Shown: piece after piece, positions 14,646 to 36,691 of the stretch | Position numbering within the stretch: the first letter of the stretch is position 1 | How the letters are laid out: every line of letters begins with the position of its first letter | From: Prorocentrum cordatum | Taxonomy: Eukaryota | Length of the DNA stretch: 64,000 bases | Direction of reading: 5' to 3' | NCBI GenBank assembly: GCA_963575745.1 | Contig: CAUYUJ010000049.1 | Span: 1 to 64,000 of the forward strand | Translations under genes and position numbers: made by a program | Notes under the pieces: generated by a model | The model's database searches: none | What the model saw: the letters and a program-made list of their open reading frames with translations, nothing else | Told to the model about the DNA's origin: nothing

Positions 14646-15594
14646 GTTTGGCAGTCTTAAACATGTGCTCAGCGCAATTCTCCCGCGGTAACCTCAACCA
14701 TCTGTCCGCCCTTTATCTATTTTGTAATCGTCATGCTCAAGAACAAAAGGATAGAGGTCCCCTGGGCGGTGTCGCAGCTTGCGGTAAAGACTTACACCGT
14801 CTAAAATCATCATCCGGGGGGGAAATCCCCATGGCTGTATCTGTCAATCCGACGGTTCATTTTAGCCCTGACGAGAGTGGCGACATCGTCCCGCATCCGG
14901 CTCACGCCAGATCCGTCGGTCCTCCAGCATTCATGGTCTCCGCCAACGCACATGATCTCTATTGCCCCGTCTCCCGCACGAGTGATCGCGTCGTCCACCA
15001 GCTTCATCGCGCTTACTACTAATATTCGGAGGCTTCCAGCAAAAACAAATGGGCCTCTTGTCGCTGTGGTCCAGAGCCGACTCCTATCAATTCGCCGGTT
15101 CCAACAATATCATTAAAGTTCCAGAAGATGAAACGGATCGGCGTGTGAGTCCTTTTTATATAGTGATGGTGCTGGGCCAATTTAAAGTTCTTAGCCTCCT
15201 CCTTAATTTCTGGGGCCATACACCCACTCATGACCTTCTGCGAGCTGCCGTGCACATGTTCCCGCAGATGGTACTCAGGGAGAAGACCGGGCTTCTTTTT
15301 CTTGGACGACCCCCGAAACGAGATCGTGGAATCCGAAACAATGTGGACTGAATAAGACCAATATTTGTATGCCCCACTTTCCACCACGCACAAAGGATGG
15401 AACACATATGTCACTGGCTTGCCCGTGCCCATCATGGCCGCAATGTCCTCGCCAACAAATGGAATCCATGAGTGTCCACTCACTCGGGCAATCTGCGTGA
15501 TGGCCTGGCACTTTCGAAGAAACGTTAACTTAAGTGTCCAGTTTGCCATCTGAGGGTCTATGATATCAGCATAAAGCTGAATAATCGCATCCAT
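14640..15594 (-). pseudogene. SGNH/GDSL-esterase-like domain, frameshifted
   Basis: HIVSDST (block I-like, about 15327-15347), MSGCMAPEI (block II), IFWNFND (block III GxND-like, about 15110-15130), and a degenerate DLYPF near 14750 where DxxH is expected. Confidence 0.5.
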
Positions 15595-16559
15595 TGAGGG
15601 GCCCCAGGCTACGATAAGCCAAGTTTCCCGAAAAACCCTGAAAGGCCCCCCAACAAATAATTACATAAAACACGAAAAATACAAACATATATTTACAAGA
15701 AATACCAAAATTACCAGCACCACACCTCGTAACATGAGGCAGGGCAACGCACCACCATGACATCACAACGTCCAATATACTGAAAACTGCCTCCCTGCGA
15801 AGCAACGAAACTCCCGTAAGAGCATCGAGCTCACTCGCGAGCAACGGCTACGGACATAGGGTGGTGGGTAATGTGTGAAGTAAGGTGGGGGAGGGATGGC
15901 GGCGACGGCGACGAGCAGGGGGGGGTGGAGGGGCAGGCGGGGGGGCTGAAGGGCAGGGGGTGGGGGCACGAGGGAGGGGGGGGGGGAGAGGGGAGGGAGA
16001 GTGGGGAGGGGGAGGGGGAAGTGAGAGCAGGTGGGTGGGGGGGGGAGGGGGGCGACATGTGAGAGGGCGGGGGCTGGACGACCATGGCAGCAGGAATCCA
16101 GGCGTGCGTTTCTCTGCACCCTGCGCAGGCCAGCCGCGAGACCCAAGCGTGCCATCCTTGCGCAGGCGGTCGAAACGCTAGACCGACGGCGCTGCCCACA
16201 CGCGCCGCGATAAGAGAGAAAAAGAGACCTGCCCGACTTGAAGATGGGAAGTCGAATGGGTCGAGGGTGGATGGGGGCGGGGGGGTGGAGGGTGGGATGA
16301 TGATGAGGAGGAAGCGGAGGAGGAAGAGGGAGGTGAGGAGGAGGGAGAGGAGGAGGGCGCGGCCTCCCCCTCCTCCGCACCCTCCTCGTCCGCATCCGCC
16401 TCCGACTCTTCCCACTTCGGATCCTCCTCATGCTGCACTTCCTGCTCATCCCGATCCTCCTGAGGCTGCTGCTCCTCCTTCTCCTCCCTCCCCTCCTCCT
16501 CCTCCTGGCCCTCCTGACCCTCCTCCTGGCCCTCCTGGCCCTCCTGGCCCTGGAGCGAG

Positions 16560-22480: not shown

Positions 22481-25400
22481 CCGATGGGGGAGGGGGGCCG
22501 ACCCGCGCCAGCGGCTCGAGCAGATGAGCTGCCAATCACCCCCGCTCCGACGTGAACATCATCAAGGTCGCTGGGACATGGCCCTGCAGGATGCAAGACG
22601 CTCGGGCATGTTCGTGCTCTCTCCTCTCGCTGCGGATGCTCGAGTAGCCTTGAGACGGGCGTCCGTTTCTTACCTGTCGGTTTAAGCGCGGTGTGGCTCA
22701 TGTAGGGCAGGGACAGTGCGACCCGTTCGCTAGACGGCGACCCCATCTCTCTACTGGATAGCGAGTCGATCATTCGATCCGATGGCCAGAAGGTCAACGG
22801 GATGGGGAGGGGCACGTCGGGGAGGGGGGGTCGGGGTGGTCAACTATCGAGTGATGCTGGGGCGGCGAGCTCCAGGCGGGAGGGTGGCCGAAGAATACTG
22901 TGCGGAACATGGGTCTGACGGTTAGAGGCGGACGCAAAACGTCTTCCGATTTTCGCCTATCCTAAAACAGCGCCACCATCGCAACCGTCTCCAGGCAAAC
23001 CCACGCGTGAAACGGGTCGATGCCCGCCTCGCTGGAGAGGCGGGGCGGCATCTCAGGCCCACTGAGCAAAGCTCAGTGAAACGCCATGGCAGCTGGTGCC
23101 GCCTGGCTCACCGACGCCCGATGCTGGAACTTAAAAAGAACCGCTGGCCTTTGCATGATTCCTCCTCGTCTTCGACGTCCTCCTCCTCCGTGGCCGCCTT
23201 TCCGCCTCGTCCTCCTCGCCCTCCTTGTCCTCCCCCTCCGTAACCTCCTGCCGTCGTCGCCGCATGATGCATCTGAGCCCCCTCCACGCCTGTCATCGTC
23301 CCTCGTCCTGCTAGTTCCTCCCTACCTCCTATCTGTCGCGATTCGAGGCGGGCCCTTACCTGAGCCGCCCGAATCCTGCGATCGCTGCAAGGGCAACAGC
23401 GGCGAACGGAAAGCCTGAGTAGGCATTTCCCACCAGCAACCGTGCCGTGCAATCATCGAGCGACTCGTCCGCCCCGAAAAAGCCGATGAGCCGCAGGAGC
23501 AGCTCGCCTGTCACCAGCCTGGCGCGGCAGACTCTTCTCGGGAGGGGCCCTCTACTCACCGCGTCGCCATCCTGCCCCACGCTCACCTGCCCACATCCTC
23601 ACCCCCCTCGCATCAGCCTCATCGCCCCAACGCCCATTCACCGCATCATCGTCGTCACCCCTAGCACCCCCAGGGGTGCCTCCAGTGCTTCTGCCCGTCC
23701 TCTGTCATCACGCGGAGCATCAGGACGCTCTTCGTGGTGAGCGTGGGCATGTAGTCGCGGAAGATGGCCCCTGAGCTGTCGGCCCCCAAAGCGAACCTGA
23801 GGCTCAAGTTGATGTCGGCCCACTGCATGGGCCCAGGAGCGGAGGGCCAGGGGTCGCATTCCTCACCGCGCACTGCAACCTGGGACAGGGATCGAAGACT
23901 GCACGAGGTCAGCAGGAGGAGGGGGGAAGGAGAAGGAGAAGGCGAAGGAGCAGGAGCAGGAGACGGTGAAGGAGAAGGATAAGGGCAAGGAGAAGGAGAA
24001 GGGGAAGGCGAGGGGGGGCGGAGGTGGATGGGGGAAGGAGAAGGGTGCTGGACAAAGGCCCACAGGCTGGGAGGAGGCCAACTGACTTTACGACTCCGAT
24101 CGTCGATCATCGTGGACTGCCCGGCGCCACGTCCTCCTCCTCCGCCACCTCCCTCTCGCCTCGCCCCCCTCCTCCGTCCCGTCCCTCCTCCCCGCCGTCT
24201 CCCTCATCTCTCCTCCCACCTCCGCCGCCCTCCTGCGCCCGCGCCCCCTCTCCGTCCCCCCCCCCTCCTCCGTCCTCCACCTCCTGGCTTGCATTGCCCC
24301 GCGAAGGGCCTCGATCTGCGCGTGGGTGAGGTGGGCAATCACCGTCTGGAACTCTGGGTCGCAGGCCGTCAGGTTTGGCGGGTAGTCCAAGCCCGCGCTG
24401 CGATAGTACGCCATATGCACGTCGCTGTTCCCCTTGGGCCGCTTGGCCCTGGGCGGCGAGCGGCCCTCGTGAGTCGGAATGTCCTTCCAGTTGAAAAAAG
24501 CTTCGATTGGAAGTTCGGGCAATTTCATCGAGGGGACCATGGCCGCGACGACAGAGATGCCCGCATGGTGCGCGTCGTCCAGAATCCCCACCAAAGCCAT
24601 CCGTATGCGTTTCACAGGCGACCCATACTCCTGCGCGCTGACGCGCATGGCCTCAGTTCGCTGGGGACTGGAGGTCGGAGCAGCACGCAGAGAGAGGGAG
24701 GAGACAAGGGAGGGGGATACCAAGGAGAGGGAGGGGCAGGGGCAGGAGGGAAGGAAGGCGAGGGCGCGGAGGGAAGAGGGCGAGTGGTCGATCTCGAGGG
24801 AAGCCAGACCAGGTGACACCGCAGGGGGGGGCGGGCGAGGTCGAGTCGAGGTCAAGGTGGCTAACCAAATCTACATGCACCCCCGGCGCCCTTTCGCGAA
24901 TCAAAAAAAACCATCGGCCCCCCTCGAACCACATCGGAAACGCTCGCATCAGATCCGACAAGACCAGACCGAGCCCACGGCCCGCGACGAATATCCGCAG
25001 GTCTGCAGGAAGGCGCATATCGCCACGCTGTCGGCGCACACGCCAGGCTCCACCTCGTTCATAAGGGCGGTAAGGTTTTCGACAATTACTATGGCTGGCC
25101 GCGCCTTCTGGATGTAGTCGGCGGTATATCGCCAAGCCTCGCCCGTGGCCCCTTCCCCAGTCTGCACAGGAGAGAGCCGCTTACCCCTCGTCGCAGAGTT
25201 GAGGTTACTCTTGGTGGTGCACGTGAACCCGGCAGCAAAGATACCAACCGTAGGTACAACGATGCGCTTGCCAGTCTTGACGTCGAGTGCGCGCGGCGGC
25301 GGCCGCTGGGGCTGGGCGGGAGAGGAGGAACGAGGGAGGAGAGCGGGTCATAAGCAGGGGGGCATGGGGGGGGCGCCCTTCAAGGCGCGGTCGAAAGACC

Positions 25401-26289
25401 TCCAAACTCGAACAACGCACCCGCTCTTCACAGGCACAGGCTTCATCGACTACATAGGCACAAAAGGGAAAAGCGTAAATTGGAATGACAAACGGGGCCG
25501 CATCCTCCTCCGTCTCCACCTCCTGCACCTCATCGGCATCCACGTTCACCTACACCTGCATCTCATCTCCACCTCCCGCCGCATCCTCCACCGCCTCCAC
25601 TGAACTCCTCACGAACGTCGGGCCGAGGGCCAGACTCTTTCATGTCGCCAAACAAGTGGAGCACCTCTGGGAACTCCCGCTGGAGAAAGCTCTGCTGCAA
25701 CACCCCTTTCTCGCACCGGAAGATAAACTGGAAGGTAAAGTCCCTGTCAAAGCGCTGCCGCCACTCTTCCTCAAACGCCAAGAAGATCTTAGCGATCACG
25801 TCGCTCCCGCTGAAGCCTCGCGGGGGCGGCCGCGGGGGCGGGGGTGCGCTGCGGCCGAGGACGGCGACGTAGCAGAGCACGGAGGAGGGCCGCATGGTGA
25901 GGGGAGAGCAACTGGACGAGAACGACAACAAGACGACGGACGCGGCGGAGGTCCAGGACGATACGACGAGACGGAGGGGAAGGCAACGACAGGTGAGCGA
26001 CGAACGACGAGCTCGGAGGGCGTGACGCCCCCACCGCCTCATCCTTCCCCTCCCCCAACCGCGGCTGGGCCTGTGCCAGCGCGAAGCCCGCCAGAGGCTA
26101 CTCCAGCAAGAAGGCTCGGCATGTGATGATGATGATGATGATCATGATGACGCGCCTTGAAAGGTCGGTTCTCCCAAAACACAAACCTGAGAAGCCACCA
26201 ATACGCCAACTGCGTACGGTAGAGAAAGAGGGAAGGCGGGCAAGAAGCTGGAGAGGAAGTAGCAGAACAAAGATGAATCCCAGCCCAGG

Positions 26290-26440
26290 ATTGAAACCCG
26301 AGATACTAAACGACATCATGAATGGAGACTGCCTGTCCGATACTGAAAGAAATCATGATTGAAACCCATGATACCGAAAGAAATCGTGAATGATTGAAAC
26401 CCATCCTAAATTGAACCCATGATACTGAATGAATGAAATC
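26290..26440. repeat. Degenerate tandem repeats in the LINE 3' UTR
   Basis: Recurrent ATTGAAACCC(ATG)ATAC(T/C)GAA units. Confidence 0.7.
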
Positions 26441-27017
26441 CACCACCAGGACCCTCTCGCTTTGAATAAAGGTGCGAGCAATGAGAAACGTAATGCAAGG
26501 TGATGGGTTATGCTTAAATTGATCAAAATATCTTGAGTGGCTTGAGTAACTCGAGTAACTTGAATAACTCTTGACGCCGAACTTGGGGGCATATGTTCCC
26601 ACGGCCAGAAGTGATTAAGAAGTGAAGAGAACTTTCTTTGAGTCCCTTGAAGCCCAATATACATAAGTGTCAACCCATTCGAATAAATGTGGTGAAAGAA
26701 AGAAAGCCTGACATAAACTGAATGTCTCAAGCACGCAATGACCCAGAATATACGGAGGCATACAAAGGAAACTGTAAAGCCGAGTGAGCCCAACCGTGAG
26801 AGCCCACCCCAGGTGAATCAAGGCATACGAGGTAGTTGAATTCAAACATGTATGACGCGAGAGGGCTGTGAATGTTTATGGTTTGTATTTTGCCAACTAC
26901 CGACGTTGAGGAACATGCAAAGGAGATTGAAGGAGAACTGAGAGACCTCCAAAAGCCGCAGGCCCATGCACCGCAGATGCCAAGAGGTTCAGACTGTGGG
27001 AGTCCCAGGAGAGGTCT

Positions 27018-27263
27018 TCACGGATACTTCCAACGCCACTTTTCAACAAAGAAGTCTCCGTCCCACCAGTAGTCAGATAGGTACCAAACCACTGGGTGGG
27101 GCCAGCCAGATTCAGGGTCGAACCACGTATCATAGTACTCCGTGTACCAGACTTTGGTGTAGACTTTTTCCTCTTCGCAGTAGTTCCACATTCCACCTGA
27201 GCCGTGAGTCCACTTGAGACGCTTCCTGGCTGCTAGCTTGGCTGGGAGGCTGCGTTTGACCAT
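27018..27263 (-). CDS. LINE cargo ORF-D, 81 aa, Trp/Tyr-rich, unknown function
   Basis: ATG at 27263 (MVKRSLPAK..) lies 55 nt downstream of an SL-like 22-mer. Confidence 0.45.
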   Translation of the reverse strand: MVKRSLPAKLAARKRLKWTHGSGGMWNYCEEEKVYTKVWYTEYYDTWFDPESGWPHPVVWYLSDYWWDGDFFVEKWRWKYP

Positions 27264-27318
27264 CCCCTGAATTGTATATGGATGTTCCCAGCCGTTTTGG
27301 ACAAGAGTTCCGTCAGGG

Positions 27319-27340
27319 TTTGAGGCGAAACGGCTACTGA
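27319..27340 (-). other. Spliced-leader-like relic
   Basis: TCAGTAGCCGTTTCGCCTCAAA, 17/22 identical to DCCGTAGCCATTTTGGCTCAAG; overlaps the stop codon of the previous ORF. Confidence 0.65.
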
Positions 27341-27660
27341 CCAACAGCCAGTTCTTTCCAAGGGATTCTCCGGACCCTTTCGTCAGGTCCCCTAACGTTT
27401 ACATACAGTCTATTAAAGCCGCTGTCCCGACAAGCTTTGAAGAGCGGAATTTTGCACCAGTCATATGTGAGATGTGGACCACCAAGGTCCGAAGGTATAA
27501 GGAACCGAGCAGGCAACTTGACCGCCCTTTGGAATAGCAGCGTAGAGCAGTATGAGAGTGCTTCAAGGTCTTGTTTGGACAGGAAGCAGACTTGGCGTTT
27601 AGACCTGCAAAGCTTCCCCTGAAAGATAACGTGAGGGTCTGACGCCTTGGGAGGTAGCAT
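27334..27660 (-). CDS. LINE cargo ORF-C, 108 aa, unknown function
   Basis: ATG at 27660 (MLPPKASDP..) lies 8 nt after CCTGCAGTCTCGGGCTCAAG (27669-27688), which has an SL-like 3' end. Confidence 0.45.
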   Translation of the reverse strand: MLPPKASDPHVIFQGKLCRSKRQVCFLSKQDLEALSYCSTLLFQRAVKLPARFLIPSDLGGPHLTYDWCKIPLFKACRDSGFNRLYVNVRGPDERVRRIPWKELAVGQ

Positions 27661-27936
27661 ACCGAAAGCTTGAGCCCGAGACTGCAGGGGAGCGACAGGA
27701 GGCAAAGGGCAAGAAAGGGCCCACCAGAGGCGGACAGAGGGAGGCGGGATTGTTGCGAAGCCACGGTGTCCCTGAGATCGCAGAGATCAGGCGGGTCCCA
27801 GATAGAATCGCACAAGTGACATCTCCTGGTGTCAGCCAATCCCGAAGGCGGGAGGCAAGGAGAGAGAGAGAACACAAAGAGGTCTTGGAACAGACCCAAA
27901 TGTAAATTCCGTGGGGTGTCAAATACCCCCGCTCCA

Positions 27937-28806
27937 TTAGTATTGGAGCCTGTTCTCTGAGGCTGCAATCAGATAAGATACCCATACCTCTGAGGATTCC
28001 GTCACATTAAATTTGTGCACTTGCATTCCGTGGAACATTGCCACGGCAAACTTCCGAGTGTGGGGAGCACATGGGCCGCGAAAAAGGCGACGGTCTTTAC
28101 CGGTCCTAGCGAAAGACCCATGTTGATCAGCAAACGTCAAAATGGACCGAATGGAGCAGATGATGGGAGAAATCCCCTGAATGATGTTCCAGAACCGATC
28201 AGGCTCAACATACCCCGCTCCCAACCCTAACTCCATCAAATCTCCGATGAGCTCTAACCACCGAGAAGTGTCGGGTTCCCTGTTCCACCGTTCTCGGACC
28301 ATCCTCTGTACATCGGTGGCACGACCAGCGATTGATCGAAGCTCCTCAATGGACTTGGACGAAGCACTGGTAGGTTGTCTTCTTTGAAGATACCTGGCCA
28401 TTTGGCCCCAAATGTTCCACCAGACGGTGTAAATGAAATTCCCAGGATCTGACCATCGATTGTCGTAGAACACGGCGCCCTTGTATGACATTGTCTTGAT
28501 CTGTACAAAAGACATAGAGCGTACTGCAATTCCCACAATCCCAATAAGGTCTTTGCATGCCTTACTAGAGAAGAAGGCCTCAAAGAGATTCCATAGCTGC
28601 CTGAGAGGTATCTCGAATTCGCGTCCCCTCTCGTACATGTGGAGTGTGACACATCTCCGTGGGTTGTACGATCCTGAATTTAAAGGAACGATCTCGGAAC
28701 TTTCGATTGCCAGTGCACGTGGGCAGGCGGATGCCCATGCCTCGAAGATACAGCACTGGAGCGACTTTGAATTCCATGGCCTGACAACCCTCTGAGGGGC
28801 AAGCAT
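27937..28806 (-). CDS. LINE cargo ORF-B, about 289 aa, unknown function
   Basis: Intact complex ORF (open from 28956); the ATG at 28806 lies 55 nt downstream of an SL relic. Confidence 0.65.
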   Translation of the reverse strand: MLAPQRVVRPWNSKSLQCCIFEAWASACPRALAIESSEIVPLNSGSYNPRRCVTLHMYERGREFEIPLRQLWNLFEAFFSSKACKDLIGIVGIAVRSMSFVQIKTMSYKGAVFYDNRWSDPGNFIYTVWWNIWGQMARYLQRRQPTSASSKSIEELRSIAGRATDVQRMVRERWNREPDTSRWLELIGDLMELGLGAGYVEPDRFWNIIQGISPIICSIRSILTFADQHGSFARTGKDRRLFRGPCAPHTRKFAVAMFHGMQVHKFNVTESSEVWVSYLIAASENRLQY

Positions 28807-28861
28807 GAGAGTGTGTTCCCAGAAAACTTGAGAAGAGGTTGGGGCAGAACGTGCAAAGCTA

Positions 28862-28883
28862 ATTGAACCAAAATGACTACAGA
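28862..28883 (-). other. Full-length spliced-leader relic
   Basis: TCTGTAGTCATTTTGGTTCAAT, 18/22 identical to the dinoflagellate SL; three of the four differences are C-to-T. Confidence 0.8.
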
Positions 28884-29512
28884 AAGCAGCCAAGCCAAAC
28901 AGGCCAACCGAAAGACCAGTAACCGAGGGAAGGAGAGATAGAGAAAAGAGATGCACTTTATCAGGAATCGGGCGGCAGTCAACGTCCTGGCCAGCAAGGT
29001 GAGATTAACAATCCCAGGCCGAACCCATTTGTACTGAAGTGAAGAGGCAAACTGAACACCAAACTATCCCAAGAAAGAGCTTGAAACATCGAGGACTTGG
29101 ACAAAGGGTGAGCAACAACCCCACTTAACCCCGTCAGCCGAATAGAGAGGAATAAGATGCAGCCCCAGCTCCTGCGAGGTGACCTGGGGGCCTCATGCCC
29201 CGAGACACACATGATTCCAAGCATTCCCAGATTGAAACGAAAGCCATAATCTTGGCAAAGTGAAGAGGTTGACAACCCCATCCAAACCCGTTTTGAACTG
29301 AAGTGAAGAGCCCAACTAAGGGCGAAGCGGACCCAAGTTAAGAAACGTCCATCGAGGCTGTGGGCAAAGCAAGAAACGACTCCACTACTTTGGCCCTGAC
29401 GGACATATTGAGAGCAGAAATTAATTCATGCCTCCGAGGAAAGTCCTGGAGTCTCCGATTGAACCAGAGTTGAACCAAAAGAGAGATGAGGGCCCGAAGG
29501 GAACTGCCTCAG

Positions 29513-30823
29513 TCACATCAGGAAACGGGGTTTGCAGAGCAAGTGGCACCTAACATTGGCACCGTTGTTGCCAGACTCCACCGTTATAAGATCTCCCACA
29601 TCTTCATACATATCCTTGACGTAGAGGAGAACCACAATACAGCTACCAGCGAAGATCTGAGATTTATCGTGTAGCCTCTCCTTCTTAGGGCAGACCTCAG
29701 GGCCAATGAACGCTTCTTTGGTATAAAACCGCGCGTTAAACAAGTGGATGTCCTTGGAGCGAAACGCGTTGAGCCCAAAGTGCCAGAGAATCTTCGTAAC
29801 GTCCCTGGTAGTGAGAAAGCCGTGCTCTCCCAGAACTGGGATACTGTCTGAAATCAGTGGGCCTTGGTTATCGATAATGAAAGGTGTGAGCTCACGAACT
29901 GTGATGATTTGGAAGTGCTCCCCGACCTTGGCCTTGAAGGTGTTCAAGCCTGTAAGCTGGGGAACGAAAACCATAATGTAGCGCCTTGAACTGGTGTGGT
30001 CTGTGCCGCCCTTTGGGGCGAAAATTGGGCATCCAGAATGATCGTACTCCAACTGGGACTTCAGCACTGGAGGGCCTAACTTGCTGATCCAGGGCTTCTT
30101 ATCCTGTTCCCAGCTCTTTGGGGCAGGCTGCGACTTTCGGTCAGGCGAATCGACTTCCGCTTCAGAGCCAGAGGATGAACTCCTGGAGCCTGGTGATTCC
30201 GAAGACGGTACTTCCCAAGTAGTGCCGCCCGCAGGTTTGACAGGTGTTTCCCCACGGTAGTCCTGCGTATCTGGTAGGGCATCATCCGAATCGGGCTTCG
30301 ACCCCGACCCGCCGCCCTGCGGTTGTTTCTTGAACCCAATTGAGTACTGCATCTTCCTGGCAATCGGCGAACGGCTCCGAGAGGCAGAATCTCTCCTATG
30401 CACAGGTGCTGGGGGTGGCGTGGGGAGAATCCTTGCTTCGCGAGGGTCAGCACTGGAGGATGCCTTGGCTTTGAGACCCTGATTTTTGAACTCGACTGAT
30501 CTTGCTTGGTCCTCCTTCTTCTGTTCGAGCTTCTTCTGCAACTTGACTTTCTTCTCCTTCGAGGTAAGAATGGGCTTCGTTTCCATCTTGACCAGACGAT
30601 TCCGAGCCCAACGATCTAAGGCGTGGCGGTCGAAGCCAAAGAAAAGGGGGATAGTCGGCTGAATCAGATTCCCAGTCCAATCCAGATCCTGAGAGTAACG
30701 GGTGTCCGTGGTGAGAGTAAAGGAGGGCCCCGCAGGGCGCAGTACGATAGCAAAGTGTGTCTGGTTGCACCAGACCGAGCCGATGGCTACTGAAGGCGAA
30801 GGTGAAGCGGTTGCCGAACCCAA
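29513..30823 (-). CDS. LINE cargo ORF-A, up to 436 aa (likely ATG at 30586); basic/Ser-rich N-half and globular C-half, unknown function
   Basis: Long intact ORF immediately after ORF2. Confidence 0.6.
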   Translation of the reverse strand: MGSATASPSPSVAIGSVWCNQTHFAIVLRPAGPSFTLTTDTRYSQDLDWTGNLIQPTIPLFFGFDRHALDRWARNRLVKMETKPILTSKEKKVKLQKKLEQKKEDQARSVEFKNQGLKAKASSSADPREARILPTPPPAPVHRRDSASRSRSPIARKMQYSIGFKKQPQGGGSGSKPDSDDALPDTQDYRGETPVKPAGGTTWEVPSSESPGSRSSSSGSEAEVDSPDRKSQPAPKSWEQDKKPWISKLGPPVLKSQLEYDHSGCPIFAPKGGTDHTSSRRYIMVFVPQLTGLNTFKAKVGEHFQIITVRELTPFIIDNQGPLISDSIPVLGEHGFLTTRDVTKILWHFGLNAFRSKDIHLFNARFYTKEAFIGPEVCPKKERLHDKSQIFAGSCIVVLLYVKDMYEDVGDLITVESGNNGANVRCHLLCKPRFLM

Positions 30824-33729
30824 TCGAGCATTTCTTTAGCGAGGCCCAGACGAAACTTTTTGTCCCGAGAGCCCTGCGGAGAAAATAAGGTGGTCCAGGC
30901 ATCCTTGTCATACCTGAAAACGCACCCCCTATGCGAGCGGGAGTGGGTACGGCTGCCACCAGAGTGGTCAAAGGAGCGATTCATAATAACCCAATGCTTG
31001 CAATATTGAAACAGCCTCGACGAAAAATCTTCTGGATGTCTTTGCATGTGTGAAACCCAACTAATAGCAGAATCCAAATGGAAAATAGCCCATGAGACTT
31101 CTTTGAACCCCTTGGTTTTACGATTTCTGCGTAAACTGAATTGTTCGGGGGATTCCCCTGGGAGCCTTTTGAGTTTCAACATGATCCTGATACATTGATT
31201 CTGTGCCTTGGTAATCAAATCCGCCGTCGTCTTGCAAGGGACCCAGGCGGCGCCTCTGGATCGTATAATCCCTCCCGCCATGCAGTTAAGTTTAGAGAGG
31301 CGTTTAGACATGGGGATATGCTCATTAATCAGGAACCTACTGTTAGCCCAAAAGGCCTTGTTGATCTGTGAAATACCCTGCTTGACATCTTCGTGACAGG
31401 AGCCAGTGGCGGAGAGAATAGGGCCCAGCACCTTGGCCTCCGGTACTACAGACCAAGATTTCCCGAAGGGGTCTGACCACTTGTATCCTTGAAAGAAGTA
31501 GGGGTATGCCGGGAGGATTTCCCGATCGTCTTTGAGTTTGAGCCGATGTTCATTCCATAGCTCCGACTCTACCAGGGCAGTCAGAGTTGCAAGATCTTGT
31601 TCCGAGGAAGCCACCACAAAGATATTGTCTGACCAGCTGAGAAGAGCGATCCTGAAGTCAAATCCCAACTGCTCGCAGCGAATGGAAATTCCCAAAGAAG
31701 AATGGGTAATTTTCTCCAGTGTGGAGGCGAAACAATCTTCTACAGAAACGCGCGCCAGTATGCATGCCGTCCCAGCTCCTTGCATCAACCCACGGTCTCT
31801 TTGAATAATCCCAGTGTTTGAGTCCAAAAGTGAAATGGAAACTCGAGGGTTCCTGTGCAACCTGATGCAGCCCACCGCTAAGAAAAGAGGGACTCCCCGT
31901 CCCAATAAACTCCGTAAAACCAACCCATAACGAATCTGGTCATGGTGAGCTTTGATATCAGTAATCCCAACCATTCCTTTGTTAAAGTGATCTCGGCCAT
32001 ATTCTAAAATGTGGTATACACTCGTGTGAAGTTCTTGTAATTGTCCACCTTTGCTTAGCCCAAAAATCAGGCCCTTGAGACCTTTGGACTCAGTGTATGA
32101 ATCCAGAACTGGCAAAATGGCCCTCGCCACATATGCGTGCCCAATCTTGGCAATAGCAGGCTGAGGAATAACAACTCTAGTTTGAGAAGGGGTTCCAAAA
32201 CCTTTGATCTTGTTACCCAGGTGGCCCCCGAATGTGACGTCGTTCCAGAATTCAGGGTTGCCTAAGCAGGCTTGTATACACCCCGTGAGCCTTTGGGACC
32301 AGCCCGAAACTTTTATAACCGCCGTGCAGGCAAACTCTGTGTCGATCTTTCGGGGGGCCTTGATGTCGTCCAGCGCGTCCTCTAGCAAGGAAGGGATGAT
32401 AGGGTCGTCGTAGAAATTGAAAAAACCCAAAGATCGAAGCCAGGCGATGTCCTCCTGGCGCTCCAATTCTGAGAGTCCCCACCTCTCTCTATATTCTTCA
32501 GCAACCAGTGTGGTACAGCGATCCACTTCAAAAATCTTGACTTGATCTACGCAGAAACCCAAAATGGGTAGGAGAGACTTGCGGGAGGCCCAGACTCGTT
32601 TTCCTTGAGAGGCGTTGAGCGCAACCTGAGCCAATTCACGTTGAAGTTTCGTTATCTTGAGCGCTTTCAGTAGGAGCTGACCCAAGGCGACCCTCGAGGC
32701 TTCGTTAAGTTCGGAGTTGAACCGTGTCCTGAGACTCTTGACCCAAAATGGCTCTTCGGCAAATCTCCTAAAACTCCTTGGGAGGGCCTGAGTCGCTTCG
32801 TAAACCTGTCCCAACATATTTTCCCAGAAATCGAAGGAGAGGGTGAGGTCCCTTGGATCGTGATACCTTACCGCACATGAATCATGCTGTTCTTCATCAT
32901 TTAGACGAATAAGTTCCGCTGATTCGGGAAACAGGCCCTGGGCGATCTTCCTGACCTCCAAAATGTTGGTAGGAGTCCAAAGGAGCGGTCTTCTCTTACG
33001 AGCCCGCTGAGGGAAGGCCAGGACATCACAGCCAATAAGGGCATGGTCCCCAGGGACGCCCGCCCAGCAGGCGAAGCAGTCAAAAGATAGGTCACCCTTG
33101 GCAAGAGCAATGTGATCGATCGTGCTATTGGCTTGAGAGAGCGCCTGCTCACCATCGGGCTTCCTAGTGAATTGCATGGAAGTCTCTTGGAACCTGAGAG
33201 GGCACCAATGGAGGTCGAGGTAGGAACAGGCTTCGCAGAACGATCGAAATTTTTGGTCTCCGTTGCCTTGATCTGCATTCATGTCCCCCAACCAGGAGAG
33301 AGTGGACCCCACAGGGCGGGATCGACCGAGTTGGATGGCACAGTTTAGAGAATCATGGAAAAAAACATGGGCAAGATGAGAGAAGAGAAAGGATCTGGCA
33401 TGATGGTGGCGTCCATCGAGACAGTCAGGACGAAGATCAACACGGATAGATCTCCAATCGCAGACAATGTCGTTCACACGTTTTCTCAGAGATTTGTGCA
33501 CAAGCACGCCCATGGCCCTACACCCAGGGCCCGAATGATGACGGTAGAAAGCGTGGCCATTGAAAACGGGGCGAAGTAGCCCATCGTTTTGAAGGCAGCC
33601 CTTGAAATCCGCCTCTAGGATACAAATTAAGCCCCAGCACTTCAGCTCGAGCAAATCTAGGTTGGCTTGCATTAGAGTCTCGTCTGCCCACTTGCCTTGC
33701 ACATTGAGCGCACAAGCGAGGCCCCTCAC
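30787..33729 (-). CDS. LINE ORF2: AP endonuclease plus reverse transcriptase, 980 aa
   Basis: APE motifs LNVQG, ILE, GDMN, IDHI and GDH. RT motifs TDIKAHHDQI, RGLMQG, SWSDN (YADD-equivalent) and KVLG. Confidence 0.92.
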   Translation of the reverse strand: MRGLACALNVQGKWADETLMQANLDLLELKCWGLICILEADFKGCLQNDGLLRPVFNGHAFYRHHSGPGCRAMGVLVHKSLRKRVNDIVCDWRSIRVDLRPDCLDGRHHHARSFLFSHLAHVFFHDSLNCAIQLGRSRPVGSTLSWLGDMNADQGNGDQKFRSFCEACSYLDLHWCPLRFQETSMQFTRKPDGEQALSQANSTIDHIALAKGDLSFDCFACWAGVPGDHALIGCDVLAFPQRARKRRPLLWTPTNILEVRKIAQGLFPESAELIRLNDEEQHDSCAVRYHDPRDLTLSFDFWENMLGQVYEATQALPRSFRRFAEEPFWVKSLRTRFNSELNEASRVALGQLLLKALKITKLQRELAQVALNASQGKRVWASRKSLLPILGFCVDQVKIFEVDRCTTLVAEEYRERWGLSELERQEDIAWLRSLGFFNFYDDPIIPSLLEDALDDIKAPRKIDTEFACTAVIKVSGWSQRLTGCIQACLGNPEFWNDVTFGGHLGNKIKGFGTPSQTRVVIPQPAIAKIGHAYVARAILPVLDSYTESKGLKGLIFGLSKGGQLQELHTSVYHILEYGRDHFNKGMVGITDIKAHHDQIRYGLVLRSLLGRGVPLFLAVGCIRLHRNPRVSISLLDSNTGIIQRDRGLMQGAGTACILARVSVEDCFASTLEKITHSSLGISIRCEQLGFDFRIALLSWSDNIFVVASSEQDLATLTALVESELWNEHRLKLKDDREILPAYPYFFQGYKWSDPFGKSWSVVPEAKVLGPILSATGSCHEDVKQGISQINKAFWANSRFLINEHIPMSKRLSKLNCMAGGIIRSRGAAWVPCKTTADLITKAQNQCIRIMLKLKRLPGESPEQFSLRRNRKTKGFKEVSWAIFHLDSAISWVSHMQRHPEDFSSRLFQYCKHWVIMNRSFDHSGGSRTHSRSHRGCVFRYDKDAWTTLFSPQGSRDKKFRLGLAKEMLDWVRQPLHLRLQ
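32737..32753 (-). other. Spliced-leader-like motif inside ORF2 coding sequence
   Basis: AGCCATTTTGGGTCAAG, 16/17 identical to the SL 3' part; encodes part of EPFWVK. Confidence 0.6.
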
Positions 33730-33738
33730 GTAGGCCTC

Positions 33739-34803
33739 TCAAAGAGAGAGTGCCTCGTCGATGGTGTCTTTCAGCGTCTTGCGGAGCGCTTCATCGGGGA
33801 TTTCCTTAAGAGACTCGTGCCACTGAAATTCCCCATCCTTGATAACACCTATCTGATGATCCAAGACAAAAAGTTTTCGAGTCCGAGAGCAAATCACGTA
33901 ACTGTCTGAGCGATCTCCCATTGCCTTTTCCAGTGCACTTGAAACTGTCTTGAACAATTTTGCTGGGCCCCGCTCCTCCTTAGTACTGATTTGTCCACAC
34001 CAGATCAAATTTTCTCAGTACCCAGGAATCTTGAGATCACGGATCGTAGCTGCCGCTTGAAGTCCCACTGTAACCGAGCTCCATTTGATCTCAACGCAGC
34101 TCCCATATCCAAAAGGAGCAACAATATGCGTGGGCTGGGGAACGTCTGCTTTGCGCAGGATCGCCCGCGCCTTTTCCAGAGCCTCCTGCTTTTTGAGATT
34201 CCAGCCCAAGTTAGTGAGAATAAAGATATCTCTATCTGCTCTTGGGGTGCTGGCCCAAGGCGGACCCTTCTTCCTAGAGGGGCCCTGACTAGACTGGCTT
34301 TCCAGTTGTTTGGCTGCCATTTCTGCGCGCAGAGACTTCTGCTCCAGTTCGACCGCCAGAATCCTCTCGTTGAAGGCTTTCTGCACCTCAGTCTCACCTG
34401 CCTCAAGGTTGGCAAGCTTTACTTCGTGGTCGTTGATCAGGGTGACGGCTACTGAGAATTCCTGGGCCAAGGCCTTTTGAGTTCCCAGAACGTCAAGTTG
34501 TAATGAGTCGATACGGTCCTTGATGGGAGCGATCTTTTTATCGAGGAGCGACTCGAGTTGCACCAAAAAACCGTCAGCCCCTGTGGCTGTTGGGGCAGCC
34601 CCTGAAGATATTGTACCATTCTCTCCCAGGCCCGTACCCTTAGCAGAACCCTTGGCCACCAGTGTTCTCATAGCTTTCGAGGCCTCTTGCTGATTTTCCT
34701 TATCTTCGTCTGCCATCCGAGCGTCGTCTCTCAGTCTTTTCTGCTTATCAATATCTAAAGACAAGAGCTTTTGCATAGTTTCTCCAATCTGCAAAGTCGG
34801 CAT
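33739..34803 (-). CDS. LINE ORF1 (coiled coil plus RRM-like domain), frameshifted near 34010
   Basis: MPTLQIGETMQ start, heptad-like region LESLLDKKIAPIKDRIDSL..LEQKSL, then FILTNLGW. Continues in another frame as IWCGQISTKEER to the stop at 33739. Confidence 0.75.
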
Positions 34804-35035
34804 GGCCGAAAGTGTAAGTACGATCCAATAATCCAAAGTTCGATATGGAAAGCGCCCAATTGACAAAACCCAATAAATTCGCGAATTCGCCAAATTGAGT
34901 CGATACCCCACCAATGAGAGTGATATCCCACTGATAAATCTCACCGATTGAACCCAAATTGAACCAATCTCGCTGACCTCGACGAAGACGGAGGCAGCAA
35001 TGGCAGCCGGCGCCCCCCCTCGGCGCCCGCCCCCC

Positions 35036-35083
35036 CTTGAGCCGGCGCTTGAGCCGGCGCTTGAGCCGGCGCTTGAGCCGGCG
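35036..35083 (-). repeat. Four tandem 12-mers CGCCGGCTCAAG at the LINE 5' end
   Basis: Perfect 4x repeat, each unit ending in the SL 3' octamer GGCTCAAG, abutting the TSD. Confidence 0.85.
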
Positions 35084-35257
35084 CATGTGCTGCTTCGGGA
35101 CGAGGTCATGCATGCGGTGGATGACATCCCGCAGGGCGTCCTTGTCGACCTGGCTGGCAGTCGAGGCGAACAAGGAGCGAGGCGAAGTGGCGACGGCCCC
35201 TCGCAGGCAGGCCCCCCGAGCTCGGCCCCCAAAGTGGCCCCCAAAGGGCCAGGACGA

Positions 35258-35353
35258 AACCCGCAGAAGTCAAGCCAGCAGAACGTCCATAAGGCCCGCA
35301 GAAGGCCCCCGCGCCAGAACCCGCAGAGGTCAAGCCAGCAGAACGCCCATAAG
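35258..35353. repeat. 36-bp direct repeat with a 60-bp period, upstream of the methyltransferase exon
   Basis: AACCCGCAGA(A/G)GTCAAGCCAGCAGAACG(T/C)CCATAAG occurs twice. Confidence 0.85.
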
Positions 35354-36179
35354 AGGCCCTCAAGACGGTCTTCCCGCGGTCAAGTCAAATCGCCCCCCCC
35401 CCCCTGGCCGACGTTCGAAGCGACTGCGTGCCACAGCCACATTCATGTAAGGATGCTCGCCCTCCTCGAGACACATCGAGCCCAGTGATGCAAGGCTGCA
35501 AGAGCACAGTCGGACCAAATCGACGCCAGGGAAGCCTGCGTGCGCGCCAAACGGAAGACATTCGATAGCTGCGCCAACTCCGCCCCCACTCTTCTCTACG
35601 CTCCGCTTCCTCTGCACCCGTTGTTTTCACCCAGTGGTCGCGCAGCGGCAAGACTCGCGCATACATCGTCAGTCGAAAGCGGGCGCTGCGCGCGCAATTC
35701 AACGCCTGCACCTGGAAAGCCAAACTCAGGTACCGAACGGCGCTTTGGGAGCGGAGCGTAGAGAAGAGTGGGGGGGAGGTGGATGGGGTGCGAAAGATTG
35801 AGGTTGGGAGGGGGGAGGCGGGACGATCGGAATCTCAATGCGGCCCACTCCTGGCGCCGCGACGAGAAAATGCGGCAGCCCGACCGCGCCCGCGTGCAGC
35901 CGCGCCACAGGCAGGCCAGAGCAGCAGGGTGCCTGGCAGAGCTCGTATTCTAGCGAGCGCCACGAGACAGCGGCGTCGACGTCAAGAAAAGGGCAGGAGC
36001 GGAACGAGGCTATCGGGGTCGAGGTGGGTGAGTCGGTAAAGCCGCCGCTCGACGTCGTCGTCATCGTCACCGAATGCACAGACGCCGCCGGCCAGTCACT
36101 TGGCCTCCGCGAGGGCGGTCTCATTCCCATTGCGGCCGAGGAGTCAAGGTCAGAGTCCGCCTGTGCCCGACGGGTCCCC

Positions 36180-36260
36180 AGGTGGGTACCACGAAGACGA
36201 GCCCAACTCCGCGTTCCAGAAATAGATGTGCCTGAAATCTTCAGAGTAGTACGTCACCCA
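36180..36260 (-). CDS. WW domain exon
   Basis: GWVTYYSEDFRHIYFWNAELGSSSWYPP fits W..(Y/F)(Y/F)xN..(T/S)xWxxP. Confidence 0.75.
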
Positions 36261-36691
36261 GCCGCCCTGATCACGACGACGCTGAAGCACCACCACCCAC
36301 GAGAAAAGCCAACCCGGCCTAGGCTCGAGGGGGGGCTTGGACTTGCGCGTGTCGCGCTCAGGTCGCACCGCCCCCGCTCGCAGTCTGACGGGGCTCGCTG
36401 TTCTCCAGGCAGGCGGCATCAGCATGCCCTCTAGCGGTCCAGGATGTCTTGGAATGTGAGGCCAGCATAATGTGCCCAGCTAGGGCCAAACCTCAGCTCA
36501 ACCTCTGGAAGCACGCGCTCGTGGACGTGCCGGTGGACAACGCGCTGGTGCACCGAGAAGGGCGGACGCCGACAAGACGACGTGAACGGCGATATGGGTT
36601 TCGAAGCAGCCAGGCACATATAGTCGAACGTGATGGGATGGGATGCGATGGGCAGGGACAGGAGGAGCAAGGCGACGAGGGTGGTAGGACC

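Follow-up and report, generated by a model that had tools for sequence, protein, structure and literature searches.

How does a LINE-like retrotransposon of Prorocentrum cordatum come to carry a train of open reading frames behind its reverse transcriptase (RT), with worn copies of the spliced leader (SL) standing between them and apparently inside some of them? The element lies in a window of 64,000 nucleotides, which was analysed at its full length. It had been proposed in the preliminary description that the LINE serially captured trans-spliced cDNAs by template switching or, alternatively, that it uses encoded SL mimics to express a polycistronic cargo.

The region 26152-34983 is a single copy of a high-copy non-LTR retrotransposon family of ~8.8 kb. 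On the minus strand ORF1, the endonuclease/RT ORF2, ORF357, ORF289, ORF108, ORF81, a 3' UTR and a (TCA)9 tail follow one another (Table 1), which supports the description of a LINE-like element with extra ORFs before a simple-repeat tail. At its 5' end the transposing unit bears SL relics, and it continues through ORF1, ORF2, ORF357, ORF289 and ORF108/ORF81 to the (TCA)n tail; this arrangement belongs to the whole family, not to this copy alone. In four of four sequencing runs (X1-X4) the cargo was as deep as the RT part, ~100-400x the flanks. Depth in X1, which is summed over contigs and is not a copy number, was 223-1646 across the unit against 1.8-19 in the flanks, and the ORF289-ORF81 part (1167-1646) was at least as deep as ORF2 (223-1142). 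It was found that the depth falls sharply only at 34983 and at 26152, below which it is at flank level. Base composition agrees with this. The cargo ORFs have a GC of 0.50-0.53 and a CpG observed/expected of 0.60-0.78, close to ORF1 and ORF2 (0.50-0.52 and 0.67-0.71), against 0.64-0.66 and 0.91-1.0 in the flanks; the cargo thus matches the LINE and not its surroundings. Other copies share the R1 junction, as two database paralogs show. P0019, 91% identical to ORF2 without gaps, ends at the same residue, within R1, and the 420-aa model P0001, 84% identical to ORF357 over its full length, begins within R1 at 30784. Run depth, P0019 and P0001 together show that the cargo is family-wide, and not a one-off transduction in this copy.

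Table 1. Positions of the element's features in the window
Feature	Position	Strand	Remarks
Unit 5' end	34944..34983	-	X1 depth 428 to 6 between bins ending 34983 and starting 34984; X2-X4 likewise
Two truncated SL-3'-half relics opening the unit	34975-34944	-	TTGGTTCAAT, TTGGGTTCAAT; motif search
ORF1	34015..34800	-	261 aa; no Pfam family; no DNMT domain
ORF2	30787..33672	-	961 aa; endonuclease + reverse transcriptase; stop TAG = TAG of R1
Best SL-like site of window	32737..32759	-	16/21 ungapped; gapped score 28
R1	30774..30793	-	20-nt SL-like with 2-nt gap; supplies ORF2 stop
SL-like site in ORF357	30329..30349	-	15/21; in frame, residue 79
ORF357	29513..30586	-	357 aa; conserved protein family
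R2 doublet	29455..29480	-	two truncated SL 3' halves; 32 nt past ORF357 stop
264-nt tandem duplication	29014..29303	-	families D3 and D19, spacings 264 and 263
R5	28862..28883	-	DinoSL 18/22 (17/21 of core)
ORF289	27937..28806	-	289 aa, mostly helical in model; no Pfam family; mean pLDDT 46
R6	27669..27677	-	GGGCTCAAG, SL 3' end only; GGCTCAAG at 27676-27669, 8 nt before ATG 27660
ORF108	27334..27660	-	108 aa, putative; no Pfam family; stop TAG = TAG of R7
R7	27319..27340	-	17/22 (16/21 of core), complete from SL position 1
ORF81	27018..27263	-	81 aa, putative, tryptophan-rich; no Pfam family
3' UTR	26152..27017	-	GC 0.46; multi-copy in 4/4 runs
(TCA)9 simple-repeat tail, unit 3' end	26124..26150	-	TGA x9 on + strand

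The same region could be read as a LINE standing beside separate repeated retrocopies or short non-autonomous elements, brought together by nested or tandem insertion. In favour of this, depth varies 2-7 fold within the unit, rising 2.5-4 fold immediately below R5 in each of the four runs, and the spacers are indel-polymorphic, with joints at 27577/27730, 28888/28971, 29261/29378 and 29403/29503-29513 (one contig per run). A further relic-like site lies outside the element, at 54616-54596, between two long ORFs. On the other side, ORF2 passes directly into R1 without a UTR or tail of its own, none being found between ORF2 and ORF357, and the tail at the 3' end is the only simple-repeat tail of the element. 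Contigs of diverged copies span R1, R2 and R4/R5 (among 32 of 5226 pieces listed), for example a 276-nt contig across R1 (X2 record 12) and the contigs 28823-29033 across R5 (X2 record 9, X3 record 21). Since other copies have the sequence on either side of R1 (P0019 and P0001), composition is uniform and depth drops sharply only at the two ends, a chance neighbourhood of separate insertions is improbable.

The SL-like stretches were compared with the DinoSL sequence DCCGTAGCCATTTTGGCTCAAG, taken from the methods of PMC8045281 and PMC7245778. All four motifs pointed out in the preliminary description were recovered by this matching, on the minus strand. As a chance control, the ungapped 21-nt core was scored on the sense strand of 26001-35100 and on 300 dinucleotide shuffles of it. 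At thresholds of at least 14, 15, 16 and 17 matches there were 5, 4, 3 and 1 sites, against shuffle means of 0.82, 0.14, 0.02 and 0.003; the observed count was attained by 0 of 300 shuffles at the first three thresholds and by 1 of 300 at the last. No site of at least 16/21 was found on the antisense strand of 26001-35100, or on either strand of the remaining 54.9 kb of the window. When indels were allowed, three sites scored at least 22 against 0.07 expected, a count reached in 0 of 100 shuffles. The matches are more frequent than in shuffled controls, and the DinoSL-like stretches are genuine relics, above chance. Because they are beyond chance, reverse transcription of mature, SL-capped RNA was involved, and worn leader copies between and inside genes indicate that processed RNAs were stitched into the element.

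It is conceivable that the matches arose by accident, or as by-products of codon use in a T-rich, TTCAAG-rich coding sequence, and have no bearing on the history of the element. The short motif [CT]TCAA[GT] occurs 43 times in sense and 5 times in antisense, many of these within ORFs, and codons could explain part of it. Weaker sites (gapped score 14-18) are individually inseparable from chance; on the antisense strand 10 sites reach a gapped score of 14 or more, where sense-strand shuffles predict 4.65. However, codons or accident would hardly yield the three sites of at least 16/21. Two of the three best sites lie outside verified genes, the changes are mostly transitions (in R5 every one of the four changes gives T, from C in three cases), and the other 55 kb hold nothing of such quality. 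An accidental origin is therefore very unlikely.

Besides the relics before the cargo ORFs, ORF2 has further relic-like sites, one within it and one at its stop codon, and others lie inside ORF357 and where the element begins at its 5' end. The site at 32737-32759 is in frame in ORF2 (~residues 305-312), between the endonuclease and RT parts, and is kept in P0019; that within ORF357 is borderline alone, as 0.14 sites of at least 15 matches are expected per element. R1 alone is weak (gapped score 15); its likeness to two other sites is 77% and 69% (family D3). The pair of truncated relics at the 5' end shares 85% identity over 27 nt with the doublet 29478-29452 (family D7). R2, whose two GGTTCAA half-motifs lie at 29476 and 29465, is similar to the 5' terminus of the element; the stretch 29404-29512 is missing or replaced in some copies (joints in X1, X2 and X4, one contig each). 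Each unit of the tandem duplication starts with a pyrimidine tract, AG and a decayed SL-like stretch (R3, 29303-29278; R4, 29039-29014), and no credible ORF was found within the duplication. R5 and R7 end exactly 55 nt before the ATGs of ORF289 (28806) and ORF81 (27263), respectively. R6 is too short for a chance test of its own. Taking the evidence together, we consider it quite probable that this is one family-wide composite LINE, with real relics, whose parts were joined by RT from SL-capped RNA.

All four ORFs claimed between RT and tail exist, of which only ORF357 and ORF289 could be verified as genes. From their alignments these two are real conserved protein families. Eight relatives of ORF357 were found in 1.84 billion representatives, with identities of 34-42% for five, and alignment A2 shows conserved blocks; the model predicts a helix at the N-terminus, a long stretch of disorder and, at the C-terminus, a domain rich in beta structure (mean pLDDT 50). 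ORF289 has nine relatives. One, a cluster of 8 members, is 96% identical and another 83%, while five of 235-302 aa share 52-55% identity over 81-100% of the query. The remaining two are partial, with 58% identity over 61% and 63% over 38% of the query. A relative at 42% lies on a metagenome contig (L001), and alignment A3 has 46 invariant columns. ORF108 and ORF81 remain putative and may be one ORF split by the 22-nt relic; ORFs of 81 and 108 aa are within the expectation from length only, and overlapping same-strand ORFs of 100-154 aa exist. Among the 40 best-supported differences against other copies, the ratio of synonymous to non-synonymous changes was 9:4 in ORF2, 3:1 in ORF289, 3:4 in ORF357 and 1:0 in ORF81, the latter being the only difference in ORF81 among those listed. 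All 12 indels among those listed fall outside the ORFs, in sequence making up 30% of the unit.

The match of ORF2 to Pfam RVT_1 is weak (E 0.081 for the whole ORF; E 0.016 and 15.3 bits for residues 451-800, with a cut-off of 29.6). Its Atlas features score 0.96, the ten best named clusters all being RVT_1/Exo_endo_phos, and these clusters suggest an AP-like endonuclease part. In both copies compared, RT motif C has SDN in place of ADD, which raises some doubt about RT activity.

To our knowledge, LINEs with two extra downstream genes are of no described kind. In L1 3' transduction, and in chimeric retrogenes formed by template switching, a non-LTR RT joins unrelated RNA to a LINE and moves it. 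L1-transduced sequence lies beyond the 3' end of the element and marks a single copy lineage, and in the chimeric retrogenes the 3' partner is 5'-truncated. Here, in contrast, the extra sequence is inside the unit, before the tail, and its abundance equals that of the RT. The downstream partners have kept their 5' ends whole, with the SL. SLACS, CZAR, CRE and NeSL-1 are LINEs that target SL RNA genes in organisms with trans-splicing, and are likewise non-LTR elements physically associated with SL sequence. They are flanked by two halves of one SL exon and have a restriction-like endonuclease, whereas the SL pieces of the present element are internal, its endonuclease part looks AP-like and its flanks are unique GC-rich DNA without an SL gene.

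Closer likenesses exist in dinoflagellates. The accounts of DinoSL-relic retrogenes in PMC5585692, PMC12014239 and PMC7245778 describe a decayed or truncated 22-nt leader on the coding strand, tens of nt before starts. Doublets and truncated CTCAAG/TTGG forms are shared, and both cases imply reverse transcription of mature trans-spliced RNA. The relics so described sit at the 5' ends of independent host retrogenes. In the present element a series of them extends along a single transposing unit, behind the RT ORF, at the stop codon of that ORF and apparently also within two ORFs, and the whole series is multi-copy. SymbioLINE-Dnmt, a dinoflagellate LINE that gained a cytosine methyltransferase, resembles the present element, judging from PMC5890265: it is an endonuclease/RT LINE whose additional gene is conserved and under selection, its UTRs are conserved, it lacks a poly(A) tail and it is depleted in CpG. 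Its extra gene is ORF1, upstream of RT, whereas the extra genes here are downstream of RT and behind relics; the term 'spliced leader' occurs 0 times in PMC5890265.

These precedents bear on the first reading of the preliminary description, which may be moved to the ancestor of the family. The RT would have switched from the LINE 3' UTR onto foreign SL-capped mRNAs, cellular or of other elements, and back into the end of ORF2, in one or several rounds in a master copy, followed by amplification of the composite. R1, R5 and R7 are full-length from SL position 1, and relics stand 8-190 nt from ORF starts, as in a 5' UTR; retrogene relics are best kept at -50 to -100 in the data given in PMC5585692, where relics upstream of ~22% of gene models in two species also speak of rampant retroposition. 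A gene-acquiring dinoflagellate LINE is on record, as PMC5890265 reports for SymbioLINE-Dnmt. Relatives of ORF289 at 42-55% identity lie on short contigs showing no RT, but these contigs (0.7-2 kb) are too short to show context. No long protein fusing an ORF357-like part to RT occurs among the 1.84 billion representatives, all eight hits being of 61-195 aa. On the other hand, capture requires the RT to switch twice for each module and to re-enter the LINE exactly where ORF2 ends. No relic is preceded by an A-run or by another mark of a 3' end, and the GC and CpG depletion of the cargo are those of the LINE, not of the flanks or of nearby GC-rich ORFs. The in-frame sites in ORF2 and ORF357, the frame continuity described below and the relic-headed tandem duplication are left unexplained. 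RT of SL-capped RNA was involved, as had been claimed; a cellular origin of that RNA is only one of two live readings, because of the LINE-like composition, the relics inside ORF2 and ORF357 and the frames, and we hold ancestral capture to be possible but rather unlikely.

Our preferred reading, put forward tentatively from the sequence, is that the relics are scars, left where the RT switched template after copying SL-capped sub-transcripts that the element itself produces by internal trans-splicing. A long element transcript would receive the SL by trans-splicing, both at its 5' end and at internal acceptors, each a pyrimidine tract with AG, before the downstream ORFs, giving SL-capped sub-mRNAs. 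As these would share the 3' tail of the full-length RNA, they would still be templates for the element's own RT. On reaching the 5' SL of a sub-mRNA the RT would sometimes switch once to the full-length RNA and continue upstream, leaving an SL scar of ~22 nt in an otherwise continuous element. Scars between ORFs or in frame would survive and spread. A switch landing downstream of the acceptor would give a relic-headed tandem duplication, like the 264-nt repeat, and the SL-like stretches in frame inside ORF2 and ORF357 suggest that SL enters continuous coding sequence, not only module borders. The frames at the junctions fit. R1 is 20 nt long, and 20 mod 3 gives the frame offset of 2 between ORF2 and ORF357; R7 is 22 nt long, and 22 mod 3 gives the offset of 1 between ORF108 and ORF81. 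When the relics were removed in silico, ORF2 came into frame with ORF357 and ORF108 with ORF81, and the intervening leaders were open. Both testable junctions fit, for which chance is 1/9 on frame alone; the open leader of ORF357 may simply be coding, as in P0001. If template-switch scarring is the right explanation, ORF357 may be a former C-terminal part of ORF2, ORF108 and ORF81 may be one former ORF, and ORF289 would be an accessory gene long resident in the element. Neither a relic-free copy nor a 5'-truncated copy starting at a relic was seen among the contigs compared. The missing fusion of an ORF357-like part to RT among the representatives, the SDN motif and the want of a described LINE with two extra downstream genes also speak against this mechanism.

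An encoded SL mimic, the second earlier suggestion, fails, as a leader in an internal, uncapped position cannot act as one. Judging from their sequence, the relics and the preceding pyrimidine tracts can instead provide AG splice-acceptor sites. The 25 nt upstream of R1, R2, R3, R4 and R6 are 72-80% pyrimidine (top 2-7% of windows), from 72% at R1 to 80% at R6, and R5 has a 24/25 pyrimidine tract within 80 nt upstream. The bases directly upstream of R1, R5 and R7 are not AG, so rejoining was not at the exact splice point. The relic sites, and the AGs within them, would go on acting as acceptors, so that each downstream ORF could be translated from a separate capped mRNA. Polycistronic units that SL trans-splicing resolves are known in trypanosomatid gene arrays and nematode operons, and by analogy a pyrimidine tract and AG before downstream ORFs would give several capped mRNAs here as well. 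For dinoflagellate tandem arrays polycistronic transcription is disputed, going by a title cited in PMC11453091.

Two minor features of the ends may be added. ORF1 of this copy has a private early stop, position 34016 differing in every contig that covers it (TGA to TTA). The 3' UTR contains 9-nt repeats with CTCAAG (26544-26570) and 31-nt repeats (26339-26404).

The minus-strand element lies in a GC island of about 0.51 at 26-34 kb, surrounded by DNA with a GC content of 0.60-0.71. Contigs from four public sequencing runs (X1-X4), belonging to four studies, were aligned on 25000-36500 at a likeness of at least 85%. It was found in all four runs that the summed contig depth is high over 26152-34983 and at flank level outside, with sharp drops at these two positions; in X1 the element bins have a depth of 223-1646 and the flanks 1.8-19. 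The depth is 100-400 times that of the flanks in every run, a figure which is not a copy number and is taken only as "repeated, with these ends", and the element thus resembles a LINE in being a multi-copy, interspersed unit whose ends are fixed and whose tail is a simple repeat. No second copy is present in the 64-kb window. The flanks share just a 7-nt word (35031 and 26092), so that no convincing target-site duplication was seen; the 5' end is placed approximately, at about 34983.

Features of the element and its leader-like sites
Feature	Position	Strand	Remark
Element 5' end	~34983	-	starts with two truncated leader 3' halves
ORF1	34800-34015	-	
ORF2	33672-30787	-	961 aa
Third strong leader-like site	32759-32737	-	in frame within ORF2
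Relic R1	30793-30774	-	at the ORF2 stop
ORF357	30586-29513	-	
Spacer	between ORF357 and ORF289	-	630 nt
Relic doublet R2	29480-29455	-	
Tandem duplication (heads R3, R4)	29303-29014	-	264 nt, in spacer
Relic R5	28883-28862	-	
ORF289	28806-27937	-	
Relic R6	27677-27669	-	
ORF108	27660-27334	-	putative
Relic R7	27340-27319	-	
ORF81	27263-27018	-	putative
3' UTR	3' of ORF81	-	870 nt, short repeats
(TCA)9 tail	26124-26150	-	

Several minor features were observed at or near the ends of the element. In the 3' UTR, a 9-nt tandem repeat at 26544-26570 has sense-strand units that finish in CTCAAG or CTCGAG, CTCAAG being the last six bases of the leader; possibly these are truncated relics of the type described in PMC12014239, or the product of plain slippage. 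A perfect 12-nt tandem repeat of 4.1 copies (sense unit CGGCTCAAGCGC) occupies 35036-35084, and every unit contains the last 8 nt of the leader. This array lies about 50 nt upstream of the element in DNA of flank-level depth, and so it is private to the insertion site and outside the family consensus. On the other side, depth in the bin 25384-25767 spikes to 312 in X3, where the neighbouring bins have 0.7 and 4.4, and rises mildly in X1, to 19 between neighbours of 2.8 and 4.1. Either a short repeat lies here or, should X3 be an RNA run, this stretch beside the tail is expressed.

The four ORFs downstream of ORF2 (ORF357, ORF289, ORF108 and ORF81, the cargo) belong to the family as a whole. 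In all four runs the cargo is as deep as the reverse transcriptase (RT) or deeper; in X1 the part from ORF289 to ORF81 has a depth of 1167-1646 and ORF2 of 223-1142. Among the 32 of 5226 aligned pieces that were listed, contigs diverged by about 12-13% span the junction of ORF2, R1 and the ORF357 leader (30606-30883), and diverged contigs also span the end of ORF357 with the doublet (29279-29582) and R5 before ORF289 (28823-29033). Two database proteins respect the same boundary: P0019 (695 aa, 632 of 694 residues identical without gaps) terminates exactly at the end of ORF2, and P0001 (420 aa, 84% identical to ORF357) starts within R1, at window position 30784. The preliminary description had considered that the cargo might be private to this copy, as a one-off transduction; depth, bridging contigs and both proteins show that it is a block common to the family. 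No tail or UTR separates ORF2 from ORF357, hence the transposing unit must extend to the (TCA)n tail, and it is improbable that the region is a cluster of separate elements instead of one unit.

The leader-like motifs were compared with chance using the 22-nt dinoflagellate spliced leader (SL), in a sequence that agrees with the methods of PMC8045281 and PMC7245778. All the motifs of the preliminary description could be located: the matches of 18/22 at R5 and 17/22 at R7, each ending 55 nt upstream of an ATG, GGCTCAAG at 8 nt upstream of the ATG at 27660, and the GGTTCAA doublet at 29476 and 29465. That description had left it open whether such matches exceed shuffled controls, and they do. 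Three ungapped matches of at least 16/21 occur on the sense strand of 26001-35100, where 0.02 are expected, a number reached by none of 300 dinucleotide shuffles; there is none on the antisense strand and none on either strand of the other 54.9 kb. A gapped search gave three sites with a score of at least 22 (0.07 expected; none of 100 shuffles reaches that). The third strong site, absent from the preliminary description, is in frame within ORF2 between its endonuclease and RT parts. The earlier observation is therefore real and stronger than was stated. It should be noted here that the weak sites are individually indistinguishable from chance, that the antisense strand has 10 sites at a score of at least 14 where 4.65 are expected, and that GTAGCC alone is not enriched (4 sense, 4 antisense). 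With the strong sites taken into account, an origin of the SL-like motifs by chance is very improbable.

The relics are decayed SL copies in DNA. R5 stands before ORF289 and R7 before ORF81, both beyond chance and on the same strand within about 500 nt of a coding sequence, as in a retrogene with a leader relic; R1 lies about 190 nt before ORF357. Their surroundings lend weight to some of the weak sites. R1, a 20-nt leader-like stretch with a gapped score that is weak on its own, supplies the TAG that terminates ORF2, and R7 supplies the TAG that terminates ORF108. Within ORF357, a site of 15/21 is in frame at residue 79, two decayed leader copies head both units of the tandem duplication in the spacer, and the doublet 3' of ORF357 has 85% identity over 27 nt with the element's own 5' terminus. 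The 25 nt upstream of R1, R2, R3, R4 and R6 are 72-80% pyrimidine, and R5 has an upstream tract of 24/25. These tracts between the ORFs, along with the AGs inside the relics, look like splice acceptors. Outside the element, a leader-like site of 15/21 was observed at 54596-54616 on the minus strand, between ORFs at 56149-54611 and 54592-53279. The upstream ORF of 512 aa stops on the TAG of this relic, and the ORF of 437 aa begins 3 nt past it. Neither has a Pfam family. The pattern "ORF, relic, ORF" thus recurs elsewhere in the window.

The element was compared with known systems in which a LINE, a leader or extra sequence come together. SLACS, CZAR and NeSL of trypanosomatids and nematodes are inserted in the SL RNA gene, so that their flanks are the two halves of one SL exon. 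Here, in contrast, no SL match of at least 14/21 adjoins either end; the 5' flank has only the (CGGCTCAAGCGC)x4 microsatellite, 50 nt off, and the DNA of the 3' flank is unique and GC-rich. In 3' transduction by LINEs, the extra sequence follows the 3' end proper of the element and is restricted to one copy lineage, whereas here no tail intervenes between ORF2 and the cargo, and the cargo is at least as deep as the RT in all four runs. L1 chimeric retrogenes are another parallel, but their defining features are absent from the element. Leader relics are the known hallmark of dinoflagellate retrogenes, and relics of the same kind are found here. SymbioLINE-Dnmt is a dinoflagellate LINE that acquired and kept a gene, as its ORF1; PMC5890265 does not mention the leader. 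Its ORF1 carries a cytosine methyltransferase, whereas ORF1 of the present element has no Pfam family at E<=10, and no cytosine methyltransferase domain in particular. A full-text literature search, covering the main texts of mostly open-access papers, gave no account of a LINE with downstream ORFs headed by leader relics.

Where DNA holds a leader relic, an RT has copied a mature trans-spliced RNA as far as its 5' end, as is established for dinoflagellate retrogenes (PMC5585692, PMC12014239 and PMC7245778). When a relic lies in the middle of a unit, the RT must then have continued along another template. It is probable that the element is a family-wide composite LINE with real relics, generated by RT joining of SL-capped RNA. 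The preliminary description was half right on this point: RT template switching on SL-capped RNA is retained, and recent serial capture and encoded "SL mimics" are not.

Two accounts of the other template were weighed. According to the scar model, the element's own RNA would be trans-spliced at internal acceptors and so retain the element's 3' tail, and one switch of the RT back to full-length RNA would leave a 22-nt scar. According to the capture model, the downstream templates would be foreign mRNAs acquired by an ancestral master copy. The scar model is our tentative preference, held at somewhat less than an even chance, and capture is rather unlikely. Scarring is preferred because it needs a single switch for each relic and not two, and because it accounts for the LINE-like base composition of the cargo: the cargo ORFs have a GC content of 0.50-0.53 and a CpG observed/expected ratio of 0.60-0.78, close to those of ORF1 and ORF2 (0.50-0.52 and 0.67-0.71), and the flanks have 0.64-0.66 and 0.91-1.0. 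It also permits relic-like stretches within ORF2 and ORF357, and it predicts tandem duplications headed by relics, as in the spacer. In addition, the frame arithmetic fits, since the offset is 2 (20 mod 3) between ORF2 and ORF357 and 1 (22 mod 3) between ORF108 and ORF81, and the intervening leaders are open. On the other hand, by frame alone such a coincidence has a chance of 1 in 9, and the ORF357 leader could be open just because it is coding sequence, as it is in P0001. The bases immediately before R1, R5 and R7 are not AG, neither a relic-free nor a relic-started copy was seen among the copies examined, and there is no long RT-ORF357 fusion among 1.84 billion representative proteins. To our knowledge, no kind of LINE has been described that has two or three additional genes downstream. 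The remaining probability belongs to mixtures or to mechanisms that were not considered.

The scar model could be extended to an operon-like retrotransposon, a reading that we regard as doubtful, in which a long LINE transcript gives several SL-capped mRNAs by internal trans-splicing and the RT at times rejoins the sub-mRNAs to full-length RNA. The leader relics would then be fossils of the splice sites inside the element. Through insertion of the SL, an ORF2 that was about 1380 aa long in the ancestor would have been divided into the RT and ORF357 proteins, and an ORF of 200 aa into ORF108 and ORF81, and leader-derived peptides would have been added in frame within ORF2 and ORF357. ORF289 and ORF357 would be accessory proteins of a retroelement lineage present in several dinoflagellates.

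As judged from its relatives, ORF289 is a gene. Nine relatives were found, one at 96% identity (in a cluster of 8 members), one at 83%, five of 235-302 aa at 52-55% covering 81-100% of the query, and two partial ones that cover 61% (at 58% identity) and 38% (at 63% identity) of the query; when the ten sequences are aligned, 46 columns are invariant. A metagenome scan with this alignment gave 96 stretches that fit the pattern, including one true relative at 42% identity on contig L001 (1398 nt, beginning inside the gene), in which the 640-nt downstream part has no relic and no sequence like ORF108 or ORF81. Viral contigs and prokaryote genome contigs hold no relative of ORF289 or of the C-terminal part of ORF2. 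On similar grounds of sequence conservation ORF357 is also a gene, having one full-length paralog at 84% identity. An exhaustive profile-free search of 1.84 billion representatives gave 8 hits, none more than a fragment (61-195 aa); five are 34-42% identical and have clear blocks in common in the C-terminal half. The lengths of ORF108 and ORF81 are within the chance range. No Pfam family was found for seven of the eight element ORFs, ORF357 and ORF289 among them.

Among the best-supported 40 of the 1421 differences between copies, the synonymous to non-synonymous counts are 9:4 in ORF2, 3:1 in ORF289, 3:4 in ORF357, 1:0 in ORF81 and 1:4 in ORF1, the last including a stop at 34016 that is private to the window copy. 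Every contig aligned there, in all four runs, differs from it, and the alternative base would change TGA to TTA, adding 11 codons to ORF1. All 12 of the indels listed sit outside the ORFs, that is, in 30% of the unit. These counts are weak but consistent with the extra ORFs having been copied from working masters, like ORF2. It was also observed that the differences over 26152-34983 are strand-asymmetric, with 418 G>A plus A>G and 198 C>T plus T>C on the plus strand in X1. X2-X4 resemble X1, so that sense-strand C/T changes are about twice the G/A changes, which suggests strand-specific mutation or editing on RNA or on one DNA strand.

ORF2 appears by its similarities to be a very divergent endonuclease/RT protein. 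Pfam RVT_1 matches the whole ORF at E 0.081 and the RT part alone at E 0.016 (15.3 bits, below the cut-off of 29.6), and there is no match among solved structures (PDB) by sequence at E<=1. Its Atlas language-model features score 0.96, the ten best named clusters are all RVT_1, and Exo_endo_phos occurs in 19-85% of the members of its neighbour clusters. Residues 1-260 have no Pfam match, and catalytic-looking endonuclease motifs are read there by eye only. RT motifs A and B were likewise seen by eye, and motif C is SDN, not ADD (31620-31640, residues ~678-684), also in the 91%-identical paralog P0019. Either the lineage would tolerate Asn at the second catalytic Asp or the copies would rely on another RT.

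Structure prediction gave leads only for the function of the cargo. In the model of ORF357, which is poor (mean pLDDT 50), a predicted N-terminal helix is followed by some 140 disordered residues and then by a beta-rich domain. For residues 197-327 the top solved-structure match is a ubiquitin-like DWNN domain at Z 6.3, below the noise level of Z 7-8, and this match may be taken as a lead only. The basic N-terminal arm prompted a look at a capsid-like or endogenous RNA-virus origin (as did PMC10235124), which found no support in sequence or fold; against viral folds the model has no match at E<=0.001. The model of ORF289 is likewise poor, with a mean pLDDT of 46. Atlas proposes PEX11 at 0.87 with low recognition, again only as a lead.

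Retroposition is generally considered to account for much of the growth of dinoflagellate genomes, but little is known of the copying elements and of their handling of trans-spliced RNA. In this one high-copy element, the product of its own RT is joined at several points to the ends of SL-capped RNA, and two of its proteins belong to conserved "dark" families with members in other assemblies as well. Each of the two outcomes would be informative: the LINE would be operon-like and self-scarring, or it would have multiplied passenger genes. Should the relics correspond to internal splice sites, the element would be a direct, testable case of SL-resolved polycistronic expression, which is disputed in dinoflagellates, and a new way of rewriting transposon gene structure at the RNA level. 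If they mark captured host mRNAs, the LINE would have taken passenger genes to hundreds of copies, a route by which gene families would expand and by which many "dark" single-exon genes in the annotation of dinoflagellate genomes would have arisen.

Elsewhere in the window, two more islands with a GC content of about 0.55 (8000-16000 and 54000-60000) contain long minus-strand ORFs of 512, 306, 522, 512 and 421 aa. These have no Pfam family and are unrelated to the element proteins by BLASTP; "dark" genes or further repeats may be present there. The stretches 59773-61106 and 62664-64000 form a direct repeat with 96% identity over about 1.34 kb and a spacing of about 2.9 kb. Its ORFs, 58970-60100 and 62590-63570, are related (86% identical over 127 aa), and the repeat resembles a tandem array, of genes or of repeats, which continues past the window end.
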